A stretch of DNA of 64,000 bases from an uncultured Actinomycetes bacterium (GTDB taxonomy: Bacteria; Actinomycetota; Actinomycetes; Streptosporangiales; Streptosporangiaceae). Location of the stretch: positions 20,626 to 84,625 of the forward strand of contig CAWHMD010000013.1 in NCBI GenBank assembly GCA_963830385.1, read 5' to 3'. The notes under the pieces were generated by a model. That model was not told the DNA's origin and did no database searches. It saw only the letters and a list, made by a program, of their open reading frames with translations. The position numbers and the translations under genes are program-made. Positions 20,444-43,409 of this stretch are shown here, piece after piece. Position 1 is the first letter of the stretch; each line of letters begins with the position of its first letter.

Positions 20444-21993
20444 CACTTGCACTCCGCTACGCGGTACGTTCCGACGTCGGACTTCTCCGCGAGGGGAACG
20501 AAGACTCGGCGTACGCGAGCCCCCGCCTGCTCGCCGTCGCGGACGGCATGGGCGGCCATGCCGCCGGCGAGGTGGCCAGCGCCGTGGCGATTGCCTCGGT
20601 GGCGGCGCTGGACGGAACGGTCCGCGGCGGCGACCTGCTCGGCGCGCTGAAGGAAGCGGTGCACTCCGCCAGCGACACCCTGCACCAGATGGCGTCGGCC
20701 GATCCGGCCGTCGAGGGCATGGGGACCACGCTGACCGCGATGCTGTGGGCGGGTCAGGGCTACGCGCTGTGCCACATCGGCGACTCCCGCGGCTACATGC
20801 TGCGCGACGGCGAGCTCTACCAGATCACCCACGACCACTCCCTGGTGCAGTCGCTGGTCGACGAGGGCCGGCTCAGCCAGGAGGAGGCGGCTACCCACCC
20901 GCAGCGCTCGCTGATCCTGCGCGCGCTGGACGGGCGCGGCGAGGCCGAGCCCGACCTGTCCATGCGCAAGGCCATGCCCGGCGACCGGTACCTGCTCTGT
21001 TCCGACGGCCTGTCCGACGTGGTCAGCGCGGAGACGCTGCACCACACGCTGAGCACGATCCCGGACCTGGACGACGTGACGGTCCAGCTCATCGAGCTGG
21101 CCATCCGGGGCGGCGGCCCGGACAACATCACCGTGGTGGTGGCCGACGTCGTCGACGACGAGACCGACACCCGGGCACCCACCACCGTGCCGATCATGGC
21201 CGGCGCCGCCTCGCACGGGAACGCCGCCGACCTCAGCCTGCTGGCGCGCAGCGACAGCCCGGCCGGGCGGGCCCAGATGCTGGCCCACACCGCGCCGCAG
21301 CCCTCGGTCATGCTGGATGAGCCGCGGACCGGGCCGGACGGCTGGGCCGGGGCCGAGCAGGAGCCCGAAGGCCCGGACAGCTGGCCGGCCACCCAGAGCC
21401 AGCCCGAGTACCGCAACGGCCACCGGGCCCGGCGCCAGCGACGGCGGCGGCGGTGGCCGATCGTGACGATGGCGCTCGTGGTGCTGGCCGCGGTGGTGAT
21501 CGGCGGCGGGTACGGGGCCTGGGCCTACACCCAGCACCAGTACTACGTGGGCACCAATCAGGGCCACGTGGTGATCTTCAAGGGCGTCAACCAGAAGGTC
21601 GTCGGCATCAGCCTGTCCAGCGTGTACTCGCGGTCGTCGCTGACCGAGCAGCAGGTCCCGCCGCAGGAGCTGTCGATGGTCCAGGGCACGATCTCGGCCA
21701 CCAGCCTGGCCGACGCGCACCGGATCGTCGGCCAGCTGCAGTCCCAGGACGCGGTGTGCCGGACCGCCTACGGCAGCCGCAACGACTGGGTGACCCAGCA
21801 GGCCGCGCTGGCCGCGGCGGCCAAGGCCAGTAAGAAGGCCAAGCCGTCGGCGTCACCGGAGCCGACCGTCCCGTCCGACTGCCCGTCGGCGACCGTGCTC
21901 GGCGTGCCCTCGCCGGCCGTGTCTCCGTCGGCGTCCCCCGCACCGTCACACTCGGCCTCCCCCACCCCGACGGCTAGGAAGGGCACGTCGTGA
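20440..21993 (+). CDS. pstP: PP2C Ser/Thr phosphatase PstP with C-terminal TM and extracellular tail
   Basis: RSDVGLLREGNEDSAY, AVADGMGGHAAGEVAS, GGPDNITVVVADV, then TM WPIVTMALVVLAAVVIGGG. Confidence 0.9.
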   Translation: MTLALRYAVRSDVGLLREGNEDSAYASPRLLAVADGMGGHAAGEVASAVAIASVAALDGTVRGGDLLGALKEAVHSASDTLHQMASADPAVEGMGTTLTAMLWAGQGYALCHIGDSRGYMLRDGELYQITHDHSLVQSLVDEGRLSQEEAATHPQRSLILRALDGRGEAEPDLSMRKAMPGDRYLLCSDGLSDVVSAETLHHTLSTIPDLDDVTVQLIELAIRGGGPDNITVVVADVVDDETDTRAPTTVPIMAGAASHGNAADLSLLARSDSPAGRAQMLAHTAPQPSVMLDEPRTGPDGWAGAEQEPEGPDSWPATQSQPEYRNGHRARRQRRRRRWPIVTMALVVLAAVVIGGGYGAWAYTQHQYYVGTNQGHVVIFKGVNQKVVGISLSSVYSRSSLTEQQVPPQELSMVQGTISATSLADAHRIVGQLQSQDAVCRTAYGSRNDWVTQQAALAAAAKASKKAKPSASPEPTVPSDCPSATVLGVPSPAVSPSASPAPSHSASPTPTARKGTS

Positions 21994-32140: not shown

Positions 32141-32185
32141 GACGCGGCGCACGAGCGCAATGCTCCTGCGCCGCGTCGCGTTTTT
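32141..32185 (+). terminator. Rho-independent terminator between convergent genes
   Basis: Stem gacgcggcgca (32141-32151) pairs with tgcgccgcgtc (32167-32177), followed by gcgTTTTT (T-run 32181-32185). Confidence 0.7.
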
Positions 32186-33572
32186 AGCTGACGGTAATGG
32201 ACAGGCTGGTGATCGCGCCGGTGTTGCCGAGCACCACCGGCTGGTCGGCGGTCACGTCGGTCAGCGTGACCGGTACCAGCGGGGTCAGCGAGTTGAGCAG
32301 CTGCAACAGCGTCGATTCGGCGTTGTCCGGGGTCAGCGTGAGCGGGACCCCGGCCAGCTTGCCGGTCAGCTTGGTCGCGTAGAGGACCACGCTGCCGGCA
32401 AACGAGGCGGACGGGGCGGCGGTCGTCAGCGTGCCATCGGCCCCGGTCACCGTGAGGTCGAGGCCGGACAGCTGCTGGGAGCTCATGGTGAACTTCATCA
32501 TCGTCAGCGTGCCGCCGCCGTTGACCGGCATGTTGACCTTGCCCTGGTAGGCGAGGCCGTCGAGGGTGGCCGAGCTGGCGGTGATGACCGCCGGGGAGCT
32601 GGAGACGACGAGGCCCTGCGTACCGGTGCCGGTCTTGTCGTTCTTGTTCTTCGCGCCGGGGCTGGCGCTGCCGATGCCGCCCACCACCGGCAGTCCGGTT
32701 GTGGGCAGGCCGGGAACGGTGGACGGCAGCACACCGCTGATCGGCAGCACGCCACCGAGGCCCCCGCCGCCCGACGACGACGGTGACGGTGAGGCGGTCG
32801 GCGTCGGGGACGGGGAGCTGCAGATGACGAACAGGATGCAGCCCTGCCCGGACTGAGCCTGTGCTGACTGCTGCGCCTGGGCCGGGTGGTCTTCGGCCGC
32901 GGAGGCGCGGGCGCCGCCGGCCAGCGTTCCGGCCGCCACCGCCAGCAGGGCGGCCACGGCCAGCAAGCGGGGGCCCTGCCAGCCACGCCCGTCGGGCCGC
33001 GGCTCGCCCAGACCCCAGGTCCTGAGCCCCGTCTCGGAGTCCGGTGACTCAGGCGGCTGAGGGGGCTGAGAGGGCTCCGGCTTCACAGCTGACTCGTGGT
33101 GCTCAGGTGACGGTTCAGGCGGGGACGGCCGGGCGGGCTCGGGCTCGGCCAGCGATCCCGGGGACCAGGCGAAGGCCAGTGAGCCGCCGACGATGCCCAG
33201 TAGCATTCCGATGAAAAAGCCACCCAGATTGGTGCCGATGAACGACAGCAGCGCGAGCAGCACCCCGGCGATCGCGTAGAACGTCTTGTGCACCGGGGTG
33301 AACCACAGCGCCAGCCCGCAGGCGATCAGCAGCGCGCCGATCAGGATGCCGAACACCCCGCCGATCCCGACGTAGATGACCAGCTTGATCTGGCCGCGGG
33401 CGAGGACTCCGGTCAGCGGGATGAGCAGCATCTCCAGCCCGCCGATGAGCAGCAGCAGGCCGCCCCAGAACGGCCGGGACCGCCGCCACTGCCGGAACTC
33501 GAACCGCCACGTCCCGGGCCGTGGCCCGGAACGCGGCCGCCGGACCGGACCCGCGTTCTCGCAAGCGGCCAT
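32184..33572 (-). CDS. Membrane protein: 4-TM N-terminal domain (resembles what I recall as DUF6114) + Pro-rich linker + TM + beta-rich extracytoplasmic domain
   Basis: WRRSRPFWGGLLLLIGGLEMLLIPL... has four helices. The linker PEPSPEHHES..PPQPPESP follows. Then RLLAVAALLAVAAGTLAGGARASA, and a Thr/Ser/Gly-rich C-terminal domain. ATG 33572 overlaps the upstream TGA (ATGA). Confidence 0.55.
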   Translation of the reverse strand: MAACENAGPVRRPRSGPRPGTWRFEFRQWRRSRPFWGGLLLLIGGLEMLLIPLTGVLARGQIKLVIYVGIGGVFGILIGALLIACGLALWFTPVHKTFYAIAGVLLALLSFIGTNLGGFFIGMLLGIVGGSLAFAWSPGSLAEPEPARPSPPEPSPEHHESAVKPEPSQPPQPPESPDSETGLRTWGLGEPRPDGRGWQGPRLLAVAALLAVAAGTLAGGARASAAEDHPAQAQQSAQAQSGQGCILFVICSSPSPTPTASPSPSSSGGGGLGGVLPISGVLPSTVPGLPTTGLPVVGGIGSASPGAKNKNDKTGTGTQGLVVSSSPAVITASSATLDGLAYQGKVNMPVNGGGTLTMMKFTMSSQQLSGLDLTVTGADGTLTTAAPSASFAGSVVLYATKLTGKLAGVPLTLTPDNAESTLLQLLNSLTPLVPVTLTDVTADQPVVLGNTGAITSLSITVS

Positions 33573-34183
33573 CACGGGCACGAGCCGCCATTGGTGCTGA
33601 CGCTCAGGTTGAGACCGGGGAGCGTGAACGTGCCGGCCGTGGTGAGCCAGGTGTGCTGCACCAGGTGGTTGATCATCACGGTGTCGGCCTGCTCGCCGAA
33701 GGTCCCGGGTGTGCCGGTGGTGCCGGGGACCTGGTTCAGCGTCCCGGCGTCCTGGCCGATGGCGATGTTGCTGAAGCTGGCGTCACCGCTCAGCGAGCTG
33801 GCGTCGACGATCAGGTTGCTGGCCGAGACCGGGTGGCCGGACGAGCGGCCGGCCCGGAGCAGCAGAGTGACCGAACCGACCTTGACCGCCTGGCACAGGC
33901 TGTCCAGGGTGGCGGACCTGATCGCGGATTCGGCCACCGGGATCTGCTTCTTGCCCGAGGTCACGGTGGAGCCGAACTGCTCGAAGCCGGTGCCCTTGAG
34001 CTGGGTGGCGGTGACCGTGTACTCCTGGCCGGACACCGAGATGTTGGCGCCGATGGCGCCTTCCGCGGTCAGCCCGATCAAGATCGCGGCCACCACGGCG
34101 GACGGCACCATGATGAACGCGAACCGCCTCCAGCGGACCCGGCCCATCGTGAACTGCGGGCCGGGCTCTGCTCCTATCGACAT
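33572..34183 (-). CDS. Single-TM exported beta-rich protein (resembles what I recall as DUF6230)
   Basis: MSIGAEPGPQFTMGRVRWRRFAFIMVPSAVVAAILIGL anchor, then ISVSGQEYTVTATQLKGTGFEQFGS... GGGAG RBS before ATG 34183. The track extension is rejected. Confidence 0.55.
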   Translation of the reverse strand: MSIGAEPGPQFTMGRVRWRRFAFIMVPSAVVAAILIGLTAEGAIGANISVSGQEYTVTATQLKGTGFEQFGSTVTSGKKQIPVAESAIRSATLDSLCQAVKVGSVTLLLRAGRSSGHPVSASNLIVDASSLSGDASFSNIAIGQDAGTLNQVPGTTGTPGTFGEQADTVMINHLVQHTWLTTAGTFTLPGLNLSVSTNGGSCP

Positions 34184-34383
34184 GGCGCTCCCAGGAAGTG
34201 ATTGACTTGTGCCGCTCCGCGTCGGTGCGTGGCGGGCTGCGTCCGGCACCTCGTTCAGAAGACCGGCGATACGGCGCAAAACGTCACTGTGACGTAGGCC
34301 ACCACGCGGTCGGAGCAGAAAGTTACTCCCGAGTAAGGAACGCGTCAAGCAAGGTTTGGCCCACGGAAAGTACACATCGGGCC

Positions 34384-35232
34384 TTAAATACGGACTTTTC
34401 GGTACGAGATTTTTTCTAAATCCTGGGGATCGGTGTCGCCGGCCGGTTGCGCGGGGCCGGACGGGATGTCGATGCCGTACTCGAGCACCACCCGGTCGGA
34501 CGGGACCACGATGTGGCGGCACACTTCCAGCACCTCGCCGCCGGAGATCAGCCGGCGCAGGATCGTGAACACCGGCACGCCCTGAGCCATCTGCAGGGTC
34601 TGGGTCTCGGGTTCGGTCGGCATCCGGGCACTGACCGATTCCTCCACCCGCGACACCGGGTGGCCGAGGTAGGCCAGCTGCGCGAGCGTGCCACCCGGCC
34701 AGGGCTCGCGGGCGGGGTCGGCCACCGGGGTATCGGCCACCAGCTCCAGCGGCAGGAAGTTGATGCTGATCTGCTCGGGCTCACCGCGCACGAAGAACAC
34801 GAAGTGCCGCCGCAGCAGCGGCGTCCCCGGCTCGGTCCCGAACAGCGCGGCCAGTTCCTCGTCGGCGGTGACCTCGGAGTACTGGGCGGTGAGCCGGTAG
34901 TCCCGCCAGCCGATGGCGTGGTCCTGGGTGAACGAGGTGCGTGGCTCGGCGTAGCGCTCCCGGGCCTGACGGGCGTCGACGACGTAGCGCTCCATCGCCC
35001 GCCGCCGTACCTGCGGGCGGGCCCGCACCACCGTGCCCCCGCCCCGGCGCGTCTCGACCAGGCCCTCGTGCCGCAGCAGCGACACCGCGTGCCGGATGAC
35101 GATTTCCGAGACACCGTAGAAGCGGCGCAGCTCTTCCATGGTGGGCAGGCGGCCGCCCGGCGGGTAGTGGCCCGACTGGATCTGCTGGCGCAGTTCATCG
35201 GCCACTTGAAGGTAGGCGGGACGTTCCTGCAC
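34384..35232 (-). CDS. GntR family (HutC/UTRA subfamily) transcriptional regulator
   Basis: GGAGG-N8-GTG at 35232. wHTH LPTMEELRRFYGVSEIVIRHAVSLLRHEGLVETRRGGGTVV, followed by a UTRA-like effector domain. Confidence 0.8.
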   Translation of the reverse strand: MQERPAYLQVADELRQQIQSGHYPPGGRLPTMEELRRFYGVSEIVIRHAVSLLRHEGLVETRRGGGTVVRARPQVRRRAMERYVVDARQARERYAEPRTSFTQDHAIGWRDYRLTAQYSEVTADEELAALFGTEPGTPLLRRHFVFFVRGEPEQISINFLPLELVADTPVADPAREPWPGGTLAQLAYLGHPVSRVEESVSARMPTEPETQTLQMAQGVPVFTILRRLISGGEVLEVCRHIVVPSDRVVLEYGIDIPSGPAQPAGDTDPQDLEKISYRKVRI

Positions 35233-35770: not shown

Positions 35771-37380
35771 GTGAGCAGCGCGAACGGTGACGACCAGGCG
35801 GCCCGTCCGGGGTATCCCGACGCAGCCGTCGCCACCTCAGCCCCGCCCGGCGGCCGGACCCGCGATCAGCCCGCCCCCGACCGGCTGCGGCTGACCCTGT
35901 GCTGGGTGGCGGCGATCGGGATCGTGGCCTCGGCCGTGGTCATGATCGCGGTCTCGCTGGCCGGCCCCAGCCTGTCCGTGGTCAACATGCCCCGGCCCGC
36001 CGCCGGCCCCCGTGGTGGATCTCTTTGCACCCGGGGGCCGCCAAGGTGACGTTCGCGCTGTGGGGCGCGGTCGCCGCCGGCGGCATCGGGGTCATCGCCG
36101 GGCTGGTGGCGGTGGCCCGCGGAGCCCGGCCGCCGGTCCGGGTCATCGTCGGCTTCGCGGTGCTCGTCGTCGGCGTGCTCACCGTGCTGCCGGCCGCGGG
36201 ATCGACGGACATCCTCGACTACGCGGCCAACGGCCGGATGGCCGCGACCGGCCACAGCCCGTACGTGATGACCCCGCTGGAGCTGCAGAAGTCCGGCGAC
36301 CCGGTCGGCCGCTGGATCCCGCCGACGTGGGAGACCAGCGTCTCGGTCTACGGCCCGGTGGCCACCGCCGAGGAATGGGCCGCCGCCAAGCTCGGTGGTA
36401 CGTCGATGGCGCGGATCACGTTCTGGCTCAAGCTGTGGAACTCGATGGCGTTCGGCCTGGTGGTGCTGCTGCTGGACCGGACCCTGCGCTCCGACCCGGC
36501 CCGCCGCCTGCGCGGCCACCTGCTGTGGACGGCCAACCCGCTGCTGTGGTGGGAGATCGTCGCCAGCGGGCACATCGACGGCCTGGCCGCCGCGTTCGGC
36601 CTGGCCGGGATCCTGTTGTTGCGGCGGCGACCGGCCCCGGGAAGCGAACGCCCCCGGCTCACGAGCTTTCTGCTGGCGGGCCTGTTCATCGGGGTCGCGG
36701 CGGCGATCAAGATCCCGTTCGCGGCCTTCGGCGTTGGTGTCATCTGGGCGGGCCGCCGCTCGGTCACCGCGCTGGCCGCCGCGGCGGCCGGGTTCCTGCT
36801 GGTCCTCGTCCCGGCGTACGCGGCCGCGGGCCATCCGGCCATCTCGGTGCTGATCAGCCGGGGTCCCGCCACCACCTGGGACACGATGTACCAGATCTTC
36901 TACCGGCCGTTCGGCTACACCGAGTTCGGGGCGTTCCTGGTGCCGCCGCACCTGACAGCCATCGCCGCGGTCGCGTTCCTGGCCGTCCTCGTCCTGGCGT
37001 TCCTGCGGTTCCCGGACGGCACCCCGCAGCTGCCGGCGCTCAGCCCGGCGCTGGCCGTCAGCCTGGCCTGGCTGCTGGTCTGGTCCTACCAGCGGCCCTG
37101 GTACGACGTGATGGCGATCTGCCTGCTGGCCGTCTATCCGGCGTCGCGGCTGGACTGGCTGGTCCTGGTCCGCCTGGTCCTGACCGCGCCGGTCTACCTG
37201 CCGGGCGTCCCGGGCCTTACACCCGCCTGGGTCACCGACGCCATCAACCTCGTCGGGGAGGTGGTGGCCCCGTGGACGCGGCTGCTGGCCGCCCTCGGTT
37301 TCATCGCGCTGTGCGTCTTCGGCTGGTGGGGATGGCAGGACCTGCGCTCCGGCCAGGCCGTCCCACGCCCGCTCATCTGA
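35771..37380 (+). pseudogene. GT-C/GT87-like membrane glycosyltransferase, paralogue of 479-2179, with apparent frameshift in a C5 run at 36007-36011 (or assembly error)
   Basis: ORF 35771-36049 encodes TM1 plus ...VVNMPRPAAGP. ORF 35899-37380 continues PPWWISLHPGAAKVTFALWG... in the adjacent frame. The paralogue reads SVMEPPYPGRPGQPPWAFGAHLSPY across the equivalent point. One extra C would fuse the two frames. Confidence 0.55.
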
Positions 37381-37463
37381 CCGAATCGCGCCGACGCCCC
37401 GGCTGGCACACGAGTCACTCCAGCCGCCCGGTGCCCAGAGCCAAGTGTGCACTTCCCGATCCG

Positions 37464-37500
37464 GGAACACTTTTGGGCAGCATTTGTAAAAAAGTGTTCC
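37464..37500. promoter_or_regulatory. 11-bp perfect inverted repeat GGAACACTTTT-N15-AAAAGTGTTCC upstream of the RSH-like gene
   Basis: Read directly (37464-37474 and 37490-37500). AT-rich element in a 240-bp intergenic region. Operator or hairpin; no U-tract after it. Confidence 0.4.
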
Positions 37501-37622
37501 AGGCTTCGGAGGAAGCTCGAATCCGCAGCGGCGAACCACGCGGCTGAGGTATCCGTGCAATCTACGGATGACATTTCCTGCCGTACCTTGCCCCCGAACG
37601 TTTCCGGGAGCGCCCCACCCCG

Positions 37623-38471
37623 ATGGCAACCGACCGGCCCGCCCGTGCCGACGAGGCAACCGCCCCCGCCGACCGTGGCGTGGTTCGGCCGGACGCCCCG
37701 CCGGACGAACCGCCGGACGAACCGCGCAGCCGCGCCGAGCTCTACGCCGCCAGGCGCGGCACGGACACCCCGCCAGCCTCCAATGACACTCACACCACCG
37801 CCGACGGCGGCTGGGCCTGGAAAGGCCTCCGCCTCGATCCCCCCGCCAACCACGTCGCCGACCAGCAACTGGCCGCCCGCCGCGACGCCGAGGGCCGCCA
37901 CCCCGACGGCAGCTACGACGACCGGGGCCTGACCCCCGCCCTCCGCCGCGTCGAAGCCCAGCTCGAGCACGGCACGCTCGCCCCGGACACGGAGAAATTC
38001 GCCCTGAAATCCCCCGACCGCTTCAAAGAAAAGCTCGCCAAGATGATGGGGACAGAACCCGACCGCCCGGCCGCTGATCTGGCCGCCGACATTCACGACG
38101 GTATACGGTATACATGCATTCTTGATTTCGAGCATTACAGCTCCGAGGTTGACCAGGCACGGCGATTGCTCAGGATCGATGGCTACCAACTCATCGCCTT
38201 CAAGCCGAACTGGTCGGGCCACGAGTACAAGGGCATCAACAGCCAGTGGCGAGACCCCGCCAGTGGCGAGTATTTCGAGGTCCAGTTCCACACCCAGGAA
38301 AGCTGGGAAGCCAAGCAGCAAACCCACGACGCATACGAGAAAATCGAGTCTCCCCAGACCTCGCCGACCGATCGCACCCGTCTCCGTGAATATCAGCGAC
38401 ACATCTGCACACAGATTCCGATCCCAACCGCTGCCCTCGATTTCCATCCATTGAAAGAACGGGAAAAATAA
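37623..38471 (+). CDS. RelA/SpoT-homologue (small alarmone synthetase / toxSAS-like) nucleotidyltransferase with disordered N-terminus
   Basis: Motifs appear in canonical order. FALKSPDRFKEKLAKM (38001-38036; compare xKSxxSxxxKLxR). DIHDGIRYTC (38097-; compare DxxGxRxx). EYKGINSQW (38226-; compare YRSLH). FEVQFHTQESWEAKQQTHDAYEK (38274-38342; compare EIQIRTxxxxxWAxxxHxxxYK). Third-position G/C bias supports the plus strand over the antisense 470-aa ORF. Confidence 0.65.
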   Translation: MATDRPARADEATAPADRGVVRPDAPPDEPPDEPRSRAELYAARRGTDTPPASNDTHTTADGGWAWKGLRLDPPANHVADQQLAARRDAEGRHPDGSYDDRGLTPALRRVEAQLEHGTLAPDTEKFALKSPDRFKEKLAKMMGTEPDRPAADLAADIHDGIRYTCILDFEHYSSEVDQARRLLRIDGYQLIAFKPNWSGHEYKGINSQWRDPASGEYFEVQFHTQESWEAKQQTHDAYEKIESPQTSPTDRTRLREYQRHICTQIPIPTAALDFHPLKEREK

Positions 38472-38725
38472 GTGGCCGAGCAGATCATCTACTACGCAAT
38501 CGTCGGTACCGGCCGGACGGCGGCGGACCCTTCCGGGCTGGTTCGCCGCCGTACCACTGCTGAGGGAGCAGTGGACGAATCGTTCACGCGAGACGGCTCT
38601 TGGCAATTCACGAACGCGATCTATCAGGCGAACGCGGCGAGAATTTCGGGCCTGACCTGATTGAGATCAGCGCTGATGAGGCGGCCGCGCTGGTTGAGCG
38701 GTTCCGGCAGCGGTGGGCTGAGTAG
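38472..38725 (+). CDS. Small ORF immediately after the RSH-like gene, apparently split by a -1 frameshift near 38630-38642 (candidate antitoxin/immunity)
   Basis: GTG 38472 abuts TAA 38469-38471. Frame 0 gives MAEQIIYYAIVGTGRTAADPSGLVRRRTTAEGAVDESFTRDGSWQFTNAIYQANAA and then stops at 38658-38660. The overlapping frame continues GENFGPDLIEISADEAAALVERFRQRWAE to TAG 38723-38725, 2 nt before the ATPase ATG. Confidence 0.4.
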
Positions 38726-38727
38726 CG

Positions 38728-41556
38728 ATGGTCTCGCCCTGGCGGCGGTTGTGCGGGCTGGAGACATTCCAGATTGCGGAGGTTCCCCGGCCGGACGAGA
38801 GCGAGAACGGGGCTACCCGGGACCCGGGACGTGCACAGCGGGCGGCGGCCCTGGTGGCGGCCTATCACGCCGGGGAGGCGCTGGCGTTCGGGTGGCTGCG
38901 GGAACGGGCCGGCGACACGGTGCGGGTGCTGGCGGCGGGGGCGGCGCTGGTGGGCACGGCCGACGGGAACGAGGTGGTGCTGGCGATGCCGGGCGGGGCC
39001 CGGGGACGGGTACTGGGGCGTGGCACGGCGGCGACAACGATGGCCGGGCTGGCCTGCTGGCGGGCGATCGGCGGGATCAGCGACGGCTTAGTGGTGGCCG
39101 CGAACGGTGACCAGGCGGACCGGGAACGGGCCGCCCCCTCCCTGGAGGAGTGCCTGCTGCCGGCTTGGGGCGGGCCGTTCGGATGGCTCGCGCTGGCCGA
39201 ACCGGTGGCGCCCGCTGAACTACAGCGCCTGGCCGACGACGAGGCGCGACGTGAGCGGCTGGCTGCCCGGATGGCGGACCGCTTCCCCGAGCAGGACGTG
39301 CAGGCCCGGCGGCACCGGGACCGGCACGCCGAGTTGCGCCAGGGCCTGTCCACCGGCCTGTGGCGGGTGCATCTGCTGGCGGGCGGCGCCGATCCGGCCG
39401 CCGCGGCCCGGATCGCGGGGCTGGTGTGCGCCTCGGCCGACCTGCGAGGGCTGCCGTACTCGCTGACACCAGCAGTTACGAGGGCGAGCGGGCTGCGGGG
39501 GCTGCTCGATTCGGCGCCACCTCTGGCCCCGGCCGAGCCGGCCGAATCGGCGGATGACCTGGCCGAGCTGTACGAGGACGTGGCGCCGCGGACGCCGTTC
39601 CACGCCAGCACCACGCTGCTGGCGACGCTGGCCCGGACGCCGGACCGCGAGATCCCCGGCCTCCGGCTCACGCTCCGGCCGGACTTCGACGTGACCCCGG
39701 AGCAGGACCACCCAGCGGCCAGCATCCCGCTCGGTCAGGTGCTGGACCGGCAGCGGATGGCCGCGGGGCCGCTCCGGATCCCGCTGGACTCGCTGAACCG
39801 GCACGTTTTCGTGTGCGGGGCGACCGGCGGCGGCAAGTCGCAGACCGTGCGCGGCCTGCTCGAGGCGGCCAGCCGGGCCGGGGTGCCGTGGCTGGTGGTG
39901 GAGCCCGCCAAGGCCGAATACCGGCTGATGGCCGCCCGGCTGGCCGGGTCGGGCGCCGAGGTGGTGCGGATCCGGCCGGGCGAGGCCGACGCGGTGGCGG
40001 CCGGGCTCAACCCGCTCGAGCCCGCCACCGACGGCCACGGACGGCGGTTCCCGCTGCAGACCCACGCGGACCTGGTCCGGGCGCTGTTCCTGGCCGCCTT
40101 CCAGTCCGAGGAACCGTTCCCGCAGGTGCTCAGCGCCGCACTGTCCCGGGTGTACGAAGAGGCCGGGTGGGACCTGGCACTGGGCGAACCGCTCACGCCG
40201 GGCCTGCGCCCCGGCTATCCGGGGCTGGCCGACCTGCAGCGCACGGCCGAACAGGTGGTGCGGGGCATCGGCTACGGCCCGGAGCTGAGCGCCGACGTCC
40301 TCGGGTTCATCAAGGTGCGGCTGGCCAGCCTGCGGCTGGGCACCACCGGCCGGTTCCTGGACGGCGGGCACCCGATCGATTTTGGGCGGCTGCTGCGCCG
40401 CAACGTGGTGCTGGAGATCGAGGACGTCGGGGACGACCGCGACAAGGCCTTCCTGATGGGCACGGTGCTGTTGCGGCTGGTGGAACATTTGAGGCTGATG
40501 GGGCCAGTGAGAGCTGAGCGCGGCCTGCGTCACCTGACCGTGTTCGAGGAGGCCCACCGGCTGCTGCGGCGTCCCGAGCCAGGCGGTGGTGGTGCCGCCG
40601 CGCACGCGGTCGAGCTGTTCGCCGGGCTGCTGGCCGAGGTCCGCGCCTACGGCGAGGGGATCATCATCGCCGAGCAGATCCCCGGCCGCCTCGTCCAAGA
40701 CGTCATCAAGAACACAGCGGTGAAGATCGTGCACCGGCTGCCCGCGGCCGATGATCGCGAGGCGGTCGGCGCGACCATGAACCTCAGCCCGGCCCAGTCG
40801 CGCTTCCTGGTCACGCTGGTCCCGGGGGAGGCGGCGGTGGCGGCCGACGGGATGGACCACCCGCTGCTGGCCCGGATGCCGGACGGCACCGCCCGCGAGG
40901 CCGCCACCGCCCGCGGGGCCGTCGCCTCCGCGCCGAACGGCCCGGCACCAGCCGGGACCGCCAGCCCGGCCACGGTGTCCGCGGTCCGCAGCGTCACCTG
41001 CGGTACCGAATGCGTGGCCAGTCCGTGCACGCTGCGCGACATGCGGGCAGGCCAGCGCGCCGCCGAACGCTACCCGGCGGTCGCCCTGTGGACAGAACTG
41101 TCCGTGCTCGCGCACCTGACCGGCTGGCCGATGCCGATCCCGGGGGCCACCCTGCTCGGCCTGCTGCGCGAGTGGCCGGCCCGGCGGCGCGACTGTGCGC
41201 TGTCGCACGCGGTGGACGCCGCCGTCGCGGCCCGGACCCCGCTGATCTGCGCCCGGGTGAGCGGGCCGGCGCTGGCGGCGCACGTGGCGACGGCGGTGCG
41301 GGTACGGGTGACCCAGGGGATGTGGCTGTGCCCCGAGCGGGAGCCGCGGTGGCTGGCGCCCGGGTGGGAGGACGACGAGGGGGAGCCGGACACCGAGGCG
41401 TTGCGCCCGCTCGCGTTCGGGCTGGCCGATCCTTCGGCGGTGGAGCGGGCCGTCGGGACCAGCGTTACCGCCGCCGATTTCGGGTCACGGCTGGCCGGGT
41501 ACCTGGATCGGGAGTTCACCGACTGCCGGTGGCCGCTCCGCTATCTGAAGACGTGA
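38728..41556 (+). CDS. HerA/FtsK-superfamily P-loop ATPase (DUF87/AAA_10-like core) with unassigned N-terminal domain of about 350 aa and C-terminal domain of about 220 aa
   Basis: Walker A VFVCGATGGGKSQTV (39817-39840) followed by LVVEPAKAEY. Walker B LTVFEEAHRLL (40540-40557). VRAYGEGIIIAEQIPGRL...NTAVKIVHRLPAADD matches the HerA/VirB4 pattern. C-terminal Cys cluster CGTECVASPC. Confidence 0.75.
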   Translation: MVSPWRRLCGLETFQIAEVPRPDESENGATRDPGRAQRAAALVAAYHAGEALAFGWLRERAGDTVRVLAAGAALVGTADGNEVVLAMPGGARGRVLGRGTAATTMAGLACWRAIGGISDGLVVAANGDQADRERAAPSLEECLLPAWGGPFGWLALAEPVAPAELQRLADDEARRERLAARMADRFPEQDVQARRHRDRHAELRQGLSTGLWRVHLLAGGADPAAAARIAGLVCASADLRGLPYSLTPAVTRASGLRGLLDSAPPLAPAEPAESADDLAELYEDVAPRTPFHASTTLLATLARTPDREIPGLRLTLRPDFDVTPEQDHPAASIPLGQVLDRQRMAAGPLRIPLDSLNRHVFVCGATGGGKSQTVRGLLEAASRAGVPWLVVEPAKAEYRLMAARLAGSGAEVVRIRPGEADAVAAGLNPLEPATDGHGRRFPLQTHADLVRALFLAAFQSEEPFPQVLSAALSRVYEEAGWDLALGEPLTPGLRPGYPGLADLQRTAEQVVRGIGYGPELSADVLGFIKVRLASLRLGTTGRFLDGGHPIDFGRLLRRNVVLEIEDVGDDRDKAFLMGTVLLRLVEHLRLMGPVRAERGLRHLTVFEEAHRLLRRPEPGGGGAAAHAVELFAGLLAEVRAYGEGIIIAEQIPGRLVQDVIKNTAVKIVHRLPAADDREAVGATMNLSPAQSRFLVTLVPGEAAVAADGMDHPLLARMPDGTAREAATARGAVASAPNGPAPAGTASPATVSAVRSVTCGTECVASPCTLRDMRAGQRAAERYPAVALWTELSVLAHLTGWPMPIPGATLLGLLREWPARRRDCALSHAVDAAVAARTPLICARVSGPALAAHVATAVRVRVTQGMWLCPEREPRWLAPGWEDDEGEPDTEALRPLAFGLADPSAVERAVGTSVTAADFGSRLAGYLDREFTDCRWPLRYLKT

Positions 41557-41561
41557 GCGGC

Positions 41562-41864
41562 TCAGGCCGCGTTGGCCCGGCGCATCCGGCGACGCCGCTC
41601 AGACGAGCGCTGTTCCTCGTTCAGGCCGCCCCAGGTGCCGTACTTCTCCGGGCGGGACAGCGCGTAGTTCAGGCAGTCGATCCGCACCGGGCAGTCGGCA
41701 CAGATGGCCTTGGCCTTGCGCTCGCGGATGTCGCGCTCGGGCTGGCGCTCACCATCTGGCCCGAAGAAGATATTCAGATCCTCGTTGCGGCACGCGCCCT
41801 CGTCCTGCCAGCTCCAATTGGGCCGGGGAAGCGCAGCCGCCGAGGACCGCCGAACGTTGGACAT
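41562..41864 (-). CDS. WhiB-like (Wbl) Fe-S transcriptional regulator
   Basis: WQDEGACRNEDLNIFFGP...AKAICADCPVRIDCLNYAL...GTWGGLNEEQR has four Cys plus the GxWGG turn and a basic tail. Convergent with the ATPase gene (5-nt gap). Confidence 0.85.
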   Translation of the reverse strand: MSNVRRSSAAALPRPNWSWQDEGACRNEDLNIFFGPDGERQPERDIRERKAKAICADCPVRIDCLNYALSRPEKYGTWGGLNEEQRSSERRRRMRRANAA

Positions 41865-42011
41865 GGAAACGATCACCTCAACCGGTATTACCAAAGTTAC
41901 GTATGCGTCTAGGGCCCCGTTGGCGGGCGGAGGTCCGTTCTGGTGCGGTGCCCGCCGTACGCAAGTGCAACGCCAAGAATGCCCTGGACGTTCCCGTTCG
42001 CGTGCGGGAAA

Positions 42012-42125: not shown

Positions 42126-43409
42126 GTGACAGCCCGCATGATCAATACCCCGCAACGGGCGGCCACGCGACAGAACTCGCATCTTACGCACAGAGCGAAC
42201 ACGGACGCAGGCCGGCACGGCTGGCTCCGGCTGACGCCCGCGTACTCGGTCCGGCTGGTCCGCGAGCGGACCGGTCACCTGCCGCCCGGCGCGATCGTCA
42301 CCGACCCGTTCTCCGGCAGCGGGACCACGGTGCTGGCCGCCGCCGAGCACGGCGGCGTGGGCCAGGCGATCGACGTCAACCCGTTCCTGGTCTGGCTGGG
42401 CAACGCCAAGGCGGCCGCCTATCCGCCCGCGCTGCTGGACGAGGGCCAGGTCCTGGCCTCGTGGCTGGCCGAGCAGGCCGCCCACCACGCCCGCGACGCG
42501 GCCGGGCTGTGGGCCCCGAACCTGCACAACATCGACCGCTGGTGGTCACCGGGGTCGCTGGCCGGGCTGAAGGCCCTGCGCCACGCGCTGGACCAGGCGG
42601 AGCTGCCCGGCCCAGTCCACGACCTGTTCAGCATCGCGTTCTGCCGCACCGCGATCGGCGTGAGCAACGCGGCCTTCAACCACCAGAGCATGTCGTTCGC
42701 GGCCGGCCGTGACGCCGCGCTCGACGGTGAACCGTCCAGCGGCGACCACGTTTTCGCCCGGTTCAGCGCCGAAACGGCCGGGATCCTGGCCAGCGCCCGT
42801 ACCCGGCTGCCGGGGCGGGGCCGGGTGGTGCTGGGCGACGCCCGCGACCTCGGGACGGCCGGGCTGCCGGGCTGTGACCTGCTGCTCACCTCGCCGCCGT
42901 ACGTGAACCGGATGTCCTACATCCGTGAGCTGCGGCCGTACATGTACTGGCTGCGGTTCCTGGACCAGGCCTGCGACGCCGGCGAGCTGGACTGGACGGC
43001 GATCGGCGGCACCTGGGGCATCGCCACCTCGCGGCTGCACGACTGGGCGCCCGCCGATCTCCGGACGGCCGGCCCCACCGCTCCCATCGGCGACGAGCTG
43101 CGCGCGGTCACCGCGCTGATCGCCCGCGACGGCGGCAAGCACGGGCCGCTGCTGGCCACCTACGTGACCAAGTACTTCCACGACATGGCGGTCCACTTCA
43201 CCGCGGCGTTCGAGCACGTCAGGAGCGGCGGGACGGCGAGCTACATCATCGGCAACTCGACGTTCTACGGCCACGTCGTGCCGGCCGAGCGCTGGTACGC
43301 CCAGCTGCTGAGCGCGGCCGGCTTCGCCAGCGTGCAGACCACCGTCCTCCGCAAGCGCAACAGCAACCTCGCCCTGTACGAGTACGAGGTCACCGCGCTC
43401 CGTCCGTGA
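42126..43409 (+). CDS. Orphan DNA methyltransferase, amino-MTase (N6-A or N4-C), alpha-type motif order
   Basis: Motif I VTDPFSGSGTTVLAAAEHG near the N-terminus. Catalytic motif IV LLLTSPPYVNR lies about 190 aa later. No endonuclease gene recognised nearby. Confidence 0.8.
   Translation: MTARMINTPQRAATRQNSHLTHRANTDAGRHGWLRLTPAYSVRLVRERTGHLPPGAIVTDPFSGSGTTVLAAAEHGGVGQAIDVNPFLVWLGNAKAAAYPPALLDEGQVLASWLAEQAAHHARDAAGLWAPNLHNIDRWWSPGSLAGLKALRHALDQAELPGPVHDLFSIAFCRTAIGVSNAAFNHQSMSFAAGRDAALDGEPSSGDHVFARFSAETAGILASARTRLPGRGRVVLGDARDLGTAGLPGCDLLLTSPPYVNRMSYIRELRPYMYWLRFLDQACDAGELDWTAIGGTWGIATSRLHDWAPADLRTAGPTAPIGDELRAVTALIARDGGKHGPLLATYVTKYFHDMAVHFTAAFEHVRSGGTASYIIGNSTFYGHVVPAERWYAQLLSAAGFASVQTTVLRKRNSNLALYEYEVTALRP

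Follow-up and report, generated by a model that had tools for sequence, protein, structure and literature searches.

A small alarmone synthetase of the Apk1/Tas1-SaEAS clade and its candidate immunity partner, encoded upstream of a HerA-like ATPase in a Streptosporangiaceae-like actinomycete

The 64,000-nucleotide stretch analysed here (the window; positions 20,626 to 84,625 of contig CAWHMD010000013.1, assembly GCA_963830385.1) comes from an uncultured Streptosporangiaceae-like actinomycete and carries, in this order and on one strand, a gene for a stand-alone small alarmone synthetase (SAS), a small gene that abuts it, and a gene for a 942-aa HerA/FtsK-like ATPase (Table 1). The SAS open reading frame (ORF) runs from an ATG to a TAA over 282 codons, and the small gene begins with a GTG directly behind that stop (TAAGTG), leaving a gap of zero. 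Judged by sequence relationships and gene order, the first two genes probably form a toxin-immunity pair that is carried as a facultative accessory module.

Table 1. Coordinates in the window of the synthetase gene, its parts and motifs, and the two genes downstream of it.
Feature	Position	Strand	Basis
SAS gene, 282 aa, RelA/SpoT homologue (RSH) SYNTH domain alone, Apk1/Tas1-EAS (exported alarmone synthetase) toxin clade	37623..38471	+	ORF, phmmer, profile, Foldseek
Disordered, variable Pro/Asp/Glu-rich N-terminal region, aa 1-55	37623..37787	+	Predicted local distance difference test (pLDDT), conservation, composition
Folded synthetase module, aa 56-282	37788..38468	+	AlphaFold2 pLDDT mostly >89; Foldseek, ~213 columns with SaEAS
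D159-G-I-R162 codons: catalytic Asp (Mg2+) and adenine-contacting Arg, equivalent to SaEAS D121 and R124	38097..38108	+	Alignment
ggtatacggtatac, 7-bp tandem duplication within the G-I-R-Y-T codons	38100..38113		Chance product of codon choice
Y202-K-G-I-N206 codons: Syn3-type motif; N206 equivalent to SaEAS N169 and Apk1 N370	38226..38240	+	Alignment
F218-E-V-Q-F-H-T224 codons: Syn4 ExQ motif; E219 and Q221 equivalent to SaEAS E182 and Q184	38274..38294	+	Alignment
Immunity/antitoxin-like small gene, normally 84 aa, frameshifted here	38472..38725	+	tblastn, DNA alignments, intact P0121 on L052
HerA/FtsK-like P-loop ATPase gene, 942 aa (DUF87, HerA_C, DUF8350)	38728..41556	+	Pfam, NCBIfam, PADLOC; DUF8350 in orthologues

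The SAS consists of a disordered leader and a single folded module. As the preliminary description of this locus had reported, its translation holds the synthetase motifs in order, namely LKSPDRFKEKL (aa 128-138), DGIRYT (159-164), YKGINSQW (202-209) and FEVQFHTQESWEAKQQTHDAYEK (218-240), and the proline-rich, acidic N-terminus noted there is evident from 10 Pro and 12 Asp or Glu among residues 1-58 and from AlphaFold2 pLDDT values below 50 at residues 1-36 and 41-52. In an alignment of 41 homologues, residues 1-55 are poorly conserved apart from M1 and D4; conservation and confident folding set in at about residue 56 (confident span 56-278), and in the model disorder is confined to the first ~55 residues. 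A family-wide N-terminal extension, comprising a GGWxWKG hairpin and helices (aa 60-126), belongs to the folded module. The extreme N-terminus reads MA(T/I)DR(P) across the family (window 37623-37640; M1 invariant, D4 in at least 90%), with the variable disordered linker behind it; this pentapeptide could be a recognition tag or a mere translation-start constraint.

The AlphaFold2 model of the SAS, computed from the same 41 sequences (50-81% identity), has a mean pLDDT of 79.7 and a predicted template modelling score of 0.72, and displays the SYNTH fold, an antiparallel beta-sheet flanked by helices with a pol-beta-like nucleotidyltransferase core. The RSH/pol-beta fold had been set beforehand as the point on which the first description could fail, and it is the fold that Foldseek returned. 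The best match is SaEAS (8VX3), an exported alarmone synthetase of Streptomyces albidoflavus (Ahmad et al., mBio 2025, PMC12691689), with E 1e-14, a target-normalised template modelling (TM) score of 0.85-0.89 and 30% identity over the aligned columns. RelP, RelQ, RelSeq, FaRel2 and SpoT follow, and the top 32 matches are all RSH synthetases (8VX3, 6FGJ, 6EWZ, 3L9D, 1VJ7, 2BE3, 5DED, 8PU1, 7QPR). The structure of Apk1/Tas1 (6OX6) is not among the top 50 matches.

Sequence comparisons lead to the same relative. In the PDB, the SAS has a single significant sequence match, again 8VX3 (entered as 'SaSAS'; phmmer E 2.3e-22), which is also the sole entry reached by a profile of the family (E 9.4e-35); Tas1, RelQ and other RSH enzymes gave no profile match among PDB sequences, such relatives being reached through the fold search alone. 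Outside the PDB, SAS residues 73-271 match positions 1927-2126 of the 2133-position NCBIfam model NF041399 (E 8e-22), that is, the C-terminal Rel-like region of the XopAD/SKWP type III effectors. The likeness to these effectors is limited to that terminal domain: the score is 76 bits against a family cut-off of 2000, the SAS lacks SKWP repeats, and no type III secretion system accompanies it. A protein of the published Apk1/EAS list (A0A3D5DQS5, File S4) is 54% identical to the SAS over 214 aa, and by this similarity the family already lies within the published set of 1,369 EAS sequences, albeit undiscussed in PMC12691689. An exact-sequence look-up found no record identical to the SAS protein or to P0001.

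Taken together, the predicted fold and the sequence matches place the SAS among RelA/SpoT-type synthetases of the known Apk1/Tas1-SaEAS clade and do not point to a new type of enzyme. SaEAS produces (p)ppApp as well as (p)ppGpp, at ~1e5 per minute, is toxic when retained in the cytoplasm, and is structurally nearest to the type VI secretion system (T6SS) toxin Apk1/Tas1, from which the family list was built by jackhmmer (PMC12691689). The earlier proposal of a specialised rather than a housekeeping SAS is thus in keeping with its closest relatives, which are toxic or exported small alarmone synthetases. The domain is widespread: a profile search of 1.84 billion representative sequences gave 4,036 matches to the SAS module, and most of the top representatives (clustered at 50% identity) carry a module of ~225 aa at the C-terminus of proteins of 400-2,500 aa, with the profile match usually starting from position ~57. 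Pfam scans of these longer relatives recognised one delivery domain, a WXG100-like domain (WXG100_2) at the start of P0177.

The catalytic residues are conserved. Aligned pairwise against full-length SaEAS (37% identity over 145 aa), the SAS has the catalytic Asp, the Arg and the Syn4 ExQ motif (D159, R162, E219, Q221), and D159, R162, Y202, G204, N206, E219, Q221 and H223 are invariant or nearly so in the 41 homologues. The Asp is the residue whose replacement, D121A, inactivates SaEAS (PMC12691689), and four of the five SaEAS ATP contacts (R124, K154, N169, E182, Q184) align with counterpart residues. The preliminary description had singled out EVQFHT and YKGIN as peculiarities, a view that the comparison does not bear out. 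YKGxN in place of YRSLH and E(V/I)Q(F/I/L)HT in place of EIQIRT are standard in the Apk1/Tas1-EAS clade: SaEAS itself reads FEVQFHT and YKGLN, and EVQFHT occurs 108 times in the Streptomyces SaEAS-like proteins of File S1 of PMC12691689 and about 100 times in the Apk1/Tas1 homologue lists. Since a clade whose alarmone-synthetase activity has been measured carries His for Arg and Asn for His as a rule, these exchanges give no pointer to new chemistry, and EVQFHT as a mark of such chemistry was ruled out.

The codons of the second motif had also drawn attention for a 7-bp direct duplication. The string is indeed there, but nothing marks it as significant: 7-bp tandem duplications occur at 16 positions in the window against 12 +/- 6 in shuffles, and ggtatacggtatac recurs in 1 of 44 homologous loci, the remainder spelling G-I-R-Y-T with other synonymous codons. 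The 14-bp GGTATACGGTATAC repeat was therefore rejected as a functional DNA element on the grounds of shuffle frequency and conservation.

By analogy with its closest characterised relatives, the SAS would use ATP as donor of the beta,gamma-pyrophosphate and adenine and/or guanine nucleotides as acceptors at their 3'-OH, and so produce (p)ppApp and/or (p)ppGpp. An enzyme that instead pyrophosphorylates the 3' CCA end of tRNA, as do the toxSAS proteins FaRel2, PhRel2 and CapRel, would have the same fold; FaRel2 does appear among the Foldseek matches (E 5e-3), and the acceptor is not readable from sequence. Yet FaRel2 ranks far below SaEAS, RelP and RelQ, with a TM score of 0.38-0.39 against 0.85-0.89 for SaEAS, sequence searches reach SaEAS only, and nucleotides are the acceptors of every Apk1/EAS clade member tested. 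A tRNA target accordingly seems very improbable, and transfer to nucleotides is the activity assumed in what follows.

The small gene and its condition in the window, both overlooked in the preliminary description, are the most informative features of the locus. As read, the gene is split: the ORF that starts behind the SAS (38472-38660) encodes 62 aa, of which 52 are native and 10 out of frame, and a second ORF of 41 aa (38600-38725) lies in another frame. The native C-terminal 31 codons (38630-38722, stop 38723-38725) are thereby out of frame with the start. DNA alignments trace the break to a single A missing after 38628, where the window reads TATCAGG-CGAAC against TATCAGGACGAAC in L052, a metagenome contig that is 98% identical to the window and encodes the intact 84-aa protein P0121; the other relatives all have this base as well. 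Both pieces were compared by tblastn with 49 related genome loci, nearly all from Streptosporangiaceae with a few from Actinoallomurus and Nonomuraea; in ~40 of the 49 they are contiguous, in one frame, and directly behind the SAS, with a product of 83-94 aa. The intact protein is modelled with confidence by AlphaFold2 (pLDDT 88.5) as a beta-sheet plus helix, and the frameshift, after which only residues 1 to 52 of 84 are native, would cost this predicted fold its last strand and its C-terminal helix. Either a genuine mutation or an error of assembly could account for the missing A. Multiple frameshifts, spread over genes such as the SAS, the small gene, HerA and the MptA-B-like gene, also affect L001 (10001-11137), L002 (10001-11121) and many loci from MFD metagenome-assembled genomes (MAGs; e.g. 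L047, L048 and L050), and these were treated as noisy long-read assemblies, not as pseudogenes.

The small gene follows the SAS behind short forms, behind long forms and in tandem pairs alike. In Nonomuraea and several MAGs, for example, the SAS domain ends proteins of 412-510 aa and the same small gene comes next. Retention of the small gene behind synthetase domains that end longer proteins follows the logic of a toxin-immunity pair.

The module also differs in composition from its surroundings, with a G+C content at third codon positions (GC3) of 0.78 overall and stretches of 0.55, against 0.91-0.95 in neighbouring genes. This low GC3 fits an accessory toxin-immunity cassette. The dip spans the catalytic half of the SAS together with the small gene (window 37950-38700; G+C 0.57-0.59, GC3 0.55-0.85; flanking genes 0.72-0.78, GC3 >0.9), and homologous cassettes at other loci likewise lie below their neighbours in GC3.

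Two further arrangements were observed among the related loci. Three carry two SAS-small gene pairs in tandem (L022 4856-6950, L031 6001-8400 and L049 4921-6991), resembling polymorphic toxin-immunity arrays. In Actinoallomurus sp. NPDC050550 (L044 5155-6639), an ORF matches the SAS over aa 58-164 only and then continues in frame into a homologue of the small gene; judging from this sequence, it looks as if a deletion had taken out the catalytic half of the synthetase and left the immunity part behind as an orphan immunity gene.

The best explanation of the locus, to which we assign a probability of roughly 0.7, is an alarmone synthetase of the toxic/exported clade encoded together with its cognate immunity protein. 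Unrestrained in the cytoplasm, the enzyme would probably be fast enough to deplete the ATP and GTP pools and arrest growth, as analogy with SaEAS suggests. The 84-aa protein would most likely be the cognate immunity protein or antitoxin and its most likely mode of action would be binding to the enzyme, given that a hydrolase would have to be larger and that it lacks hydrolase motifs. The toxin may act in the producer itself, in the style of toxin-antitoxin or abortive-infection systems, or in other cells after delivery. The pair would then represent a two-gene accessory module that entered the chromosome of this Streptosporangiaceae-like actinomycete near oriC, upstream of a HerA-like ATPase gene already resident there.

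Several observations weigh against this explanation. SaEAS K154 faces A192 in the SAS, although a conserved lysine (K194) lies two residues further on the same strand, and the first Arg of the SaEAS RLKS (RxKS) motif corresponds to an invariant alanine (Ala127), with an invariant arginine (Arg133) one helical turn later. A Pfam scan of the SAS found no family at E <= 1, the RelA_SpoT model included; that model does not reach so divergent a clade, and RSH membership of the SAS rests on structure and on similarity to SaEAS. The small protein showed no similarity to known immunity or antitoxin proteins in searches of Pfam, PADLOC and the PDB. No genes of type IV, type VI or type VII secretion systems (T4SS, T6SS, T7SS), phages or mobile elements were found in the window. 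Finally, the immunity gene of the producer is broken in the window while the SAS is intact: if the frameshift is real, an intact toxin without intact immunity argues against strong toxicity or against an immunity role.

The ATPase gene starts 2 nt past the restored stop of the small gene, and a promoter and terminator scan of 37200-42000 revealed no sites, hence no terminator-like site between the SAS, the small gene and the ATPase, which is probably co-transcribed with the small gene. Short forms of the SAS (median ORF ~310 aa) lie directly upstream of the ATPase in 39 loci. The ATPase has an N-terminal region of ~330 aa without a known family and a Cys-rich C-terminal DUF8350, and, whether or not the SAS cassette is present, it adjoins a GT87/MptA-B-like membrane protein gene in many Streptosporangiaceae-like contigs.

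These arrangements raise the possibility, which is unlikely but the most probable of the alternatives (a physiological synthetase, considered below, and the tRNA-targeting enzyme follow in that order), that the SAS, its small partner and the ATPase form one three-gene unit in which the ATPase is an export motor for the toxin or a sensor or scaffold that releases it, the latter by analogy with the Sir2-HerA and DUF4297-HerA anti-phage systems. Apart from the close spacing, the association of short forms with the ATPase holds across three or more types of flanking region, those of Actinoallomurus (L012 from A. purpureus KCTC 19541, and L044) among them, and longer forms with N-terminal domains are mostly found without a HerA gene. 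Streptomyces 'cluster A' homologues without a signal peptide likewise sit beside genes for TrwB/TrwK-type ATPases (PMC12691689), and the ATPase is distantly related to defence-system HerA and VirB4.

The distribution of the genes, however, speaks for looser ties. Of the metagenome ATPase loci, 54 extend 1.3 kb or more upstream; 38 of these 54 are otherwise syntenic but lack the SAS and have a small membrane-protein gene upstream instead. The ATPase as an obligate partner of the SAS was ruled out on these counts, from which it follows that the ATPase is a resident gene and the SAS-small gene pair a facultative insert beside it. Conversely, at least 17 loci with the SAS and the small gene, many of them with longer forms (median 390 aa), have no ATPase gene within reach. 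The identities of SAS and HerA to their window counterparts drop roughly in parallel across loci, as expected of one old insertion inherited vertically with losses. PADLOC gave generic HerA/mad8 matches for the ATPase and none for the SAS or the small protein. The two marks by which HerA anti-phage systems are recognised, obligate co-occurrence of effector and HerA and a match to a defence model, are thus both absent from these loci as judged by the 38 of 54, the 17 loci and PADLOC. Functional coupling of the ATPase to the pair is possible, but that the SAS, the 84-aa partner and the ATPase (DUF87 and DUF8350) constitute an undescribed three-component system of the Streptosporangiaceae core chromosome is a shade more doubtful still. 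If true, such a system would be the alarmone-synthetase counterpart of Sir2-HerA-type defence, with an ATPase that exports the toxin non-canonically or triggers or scaffolds its release.

The probable toxin-immunity module lies in a part of the core actinomycete chromosome that is conserved and close to oriC. Upstream of the SAS, the gene order is FhaA, the PknB region, sortase, CrgA, rhomboid, PPIase, DUF6114, DUF6230, GntR and a GT87/MptA-B-like membrane glycosyltransferase; the SAS, the small gene and the ATPase are followed by WhiB on the opposite strand and by repair and metabolic genes, and the window also holds genes for a DnaE-like polymerase, Fpg, SDR and TetR. This core-chromosome gene content ruled out a location on a conjugative element, in a prophage or in a T7SS island. 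It would also suit a non-toxic, cytoplasmic SAS with a physiological role, for instance in (p)ppGpp or (p)ppApp signalling for the control of growth or development, with the small protein as its regulator: the FhaA-to-WhiB cluster is conserved and secretion and phage genes are absent nearby. Sequence inspection revealed no signal-peptide-like hydrophobic stretch in the SAS, whose N-terminus is hydrophilic and disordered, in line with the absence of a secretion signal noted in the preliminary description; the Pfam scan found no additional domain, export domains included. A strict EAS is defined by a Sec signal peptide or by a recognised domain of a secretion system (LXG/WXG, PAAR/Rhs, MuF, DUF4157 or XopAD repeats), and by the same scan and inspection the SAS has neither. 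An intact SAS beside a frameshifted small gene, moreover, would be tolerable only if the enzyme were non-lethal or tightly repressed. A physiological role is at odds with the cytoplasmic toxicity of every one of the nearest characterised relatives and with the usual place of the domain at the C-terminus of long proteins that resemble polymorphic toxins. The module is also facultative, atypical in codon usage and found in tandem pairs, and in L044 the toxin has decayed while the partner gene is retained. On balance, a physiological synthetase appears improbable.

Understood as a toxin-clade synthetase with its immunity protein, the pair can be set beside several known systems. SaEAS (8VX3) shares the fold, an identical FEVQFHT, near-identical YKG(L/I)N and LKSPD motifs and the active-site D, R, N, E and Q. 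It differs in being secreted by means of a Sec signal peptide and in having no adjacent immunity gene, whereas the SAS of the window has a disordered N-terminus without a signal peptide and an adjacent, conserved small gene; K154 of SaEAS and the Arg of the SaEAS RLKS motif are, as noted, not conserved in place. Apk1/Tas1-Tis1 of Pseudomonas aeruginosa (6OX6), a T6SS (p)ppApp synthetase toxin with its immunity protein, belongs to the same clade (PMC12691689) and has the same order of toxin domain and immunity gene. Apk1, however, is fused to a PAAR/Rhs-type T6SS delivery domain, which the SAS lacks in a window without a T6SS, and the 84-aa protein has no detectable similarity to any PDB chain, nor did its model yield a significant Foldseek match.

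AaEAS of Amycolatopsis azurea, an LXG/T7SS-linked enzyme, makes (p)ppGpp; the ~120 residues upstream of its SYNTH domain fold together with that domain, and the gene is followed by a small ORF that may encode an immunity protein. The SAS resembles it, by description and not by sequence comparison, in its conserved extension of ~65 aa before the core and in its small downstream gene, but AaEAS has an N-terminal LXG domain and T7SS targeting factors nearby, and the window has neither these nor T7SS genes. The toxSAS modules (FaRel, FaRel2, PhRel and CapRel) offer a likeness in organisation, as stand-alone RSH synthetase toxins with a cytoplasmic location and an adjacent small neutralising gene. 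They are nevertheless a distant structural match only, several of them target tRNA, and their antitoxins, which include SAH hydrolases, are unrelated to the 84-aa protein.

Two further features of the surroundings deserve mention. Genes for DUF6114 (464 aa) and DUF6230 (315 aa) proteins form a pair on the minus strand (window 32184-34522) upstream of a GntR/UTRA regulator, and the DUF6230 gene recurs beside the MptA-B-like gene in the rearranged loci L008, L017 and L019. Downstream of WhiB, a 427-aa ORF (window 42126-43409) has a short, marginal match to the DNA methylase model N6_N4_Mtase (24 residues, 27.4 bits), which its orthologue in L002 shows just as faintly.

The locus reveals no new catalytic motif and no new enzyme class, the clade having been described between 2019 and 2025 and its structure solved. 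What it adds to the exported and toxic alarmone synthetases is an actinomycete subfamily of ~280 aa without a signal peptide or delivery domain, and the residual interest lies in the partner protein, its frameshift in the window and the recurrent position of the pair upstream of a HerA-like ATPase. That short forms so consistently stand just upstream of this ATPase is a lead on the control or delivery of members that lack a signal. The 84-aa family is uncharacterised and has a confidently predicted fold without a match in the PDB; its members are candidates for a new kind of immunity protein against (p)ppApp/(p)ppGpp synthetase toxins, a group in which SaEAS has no known inhibitor.

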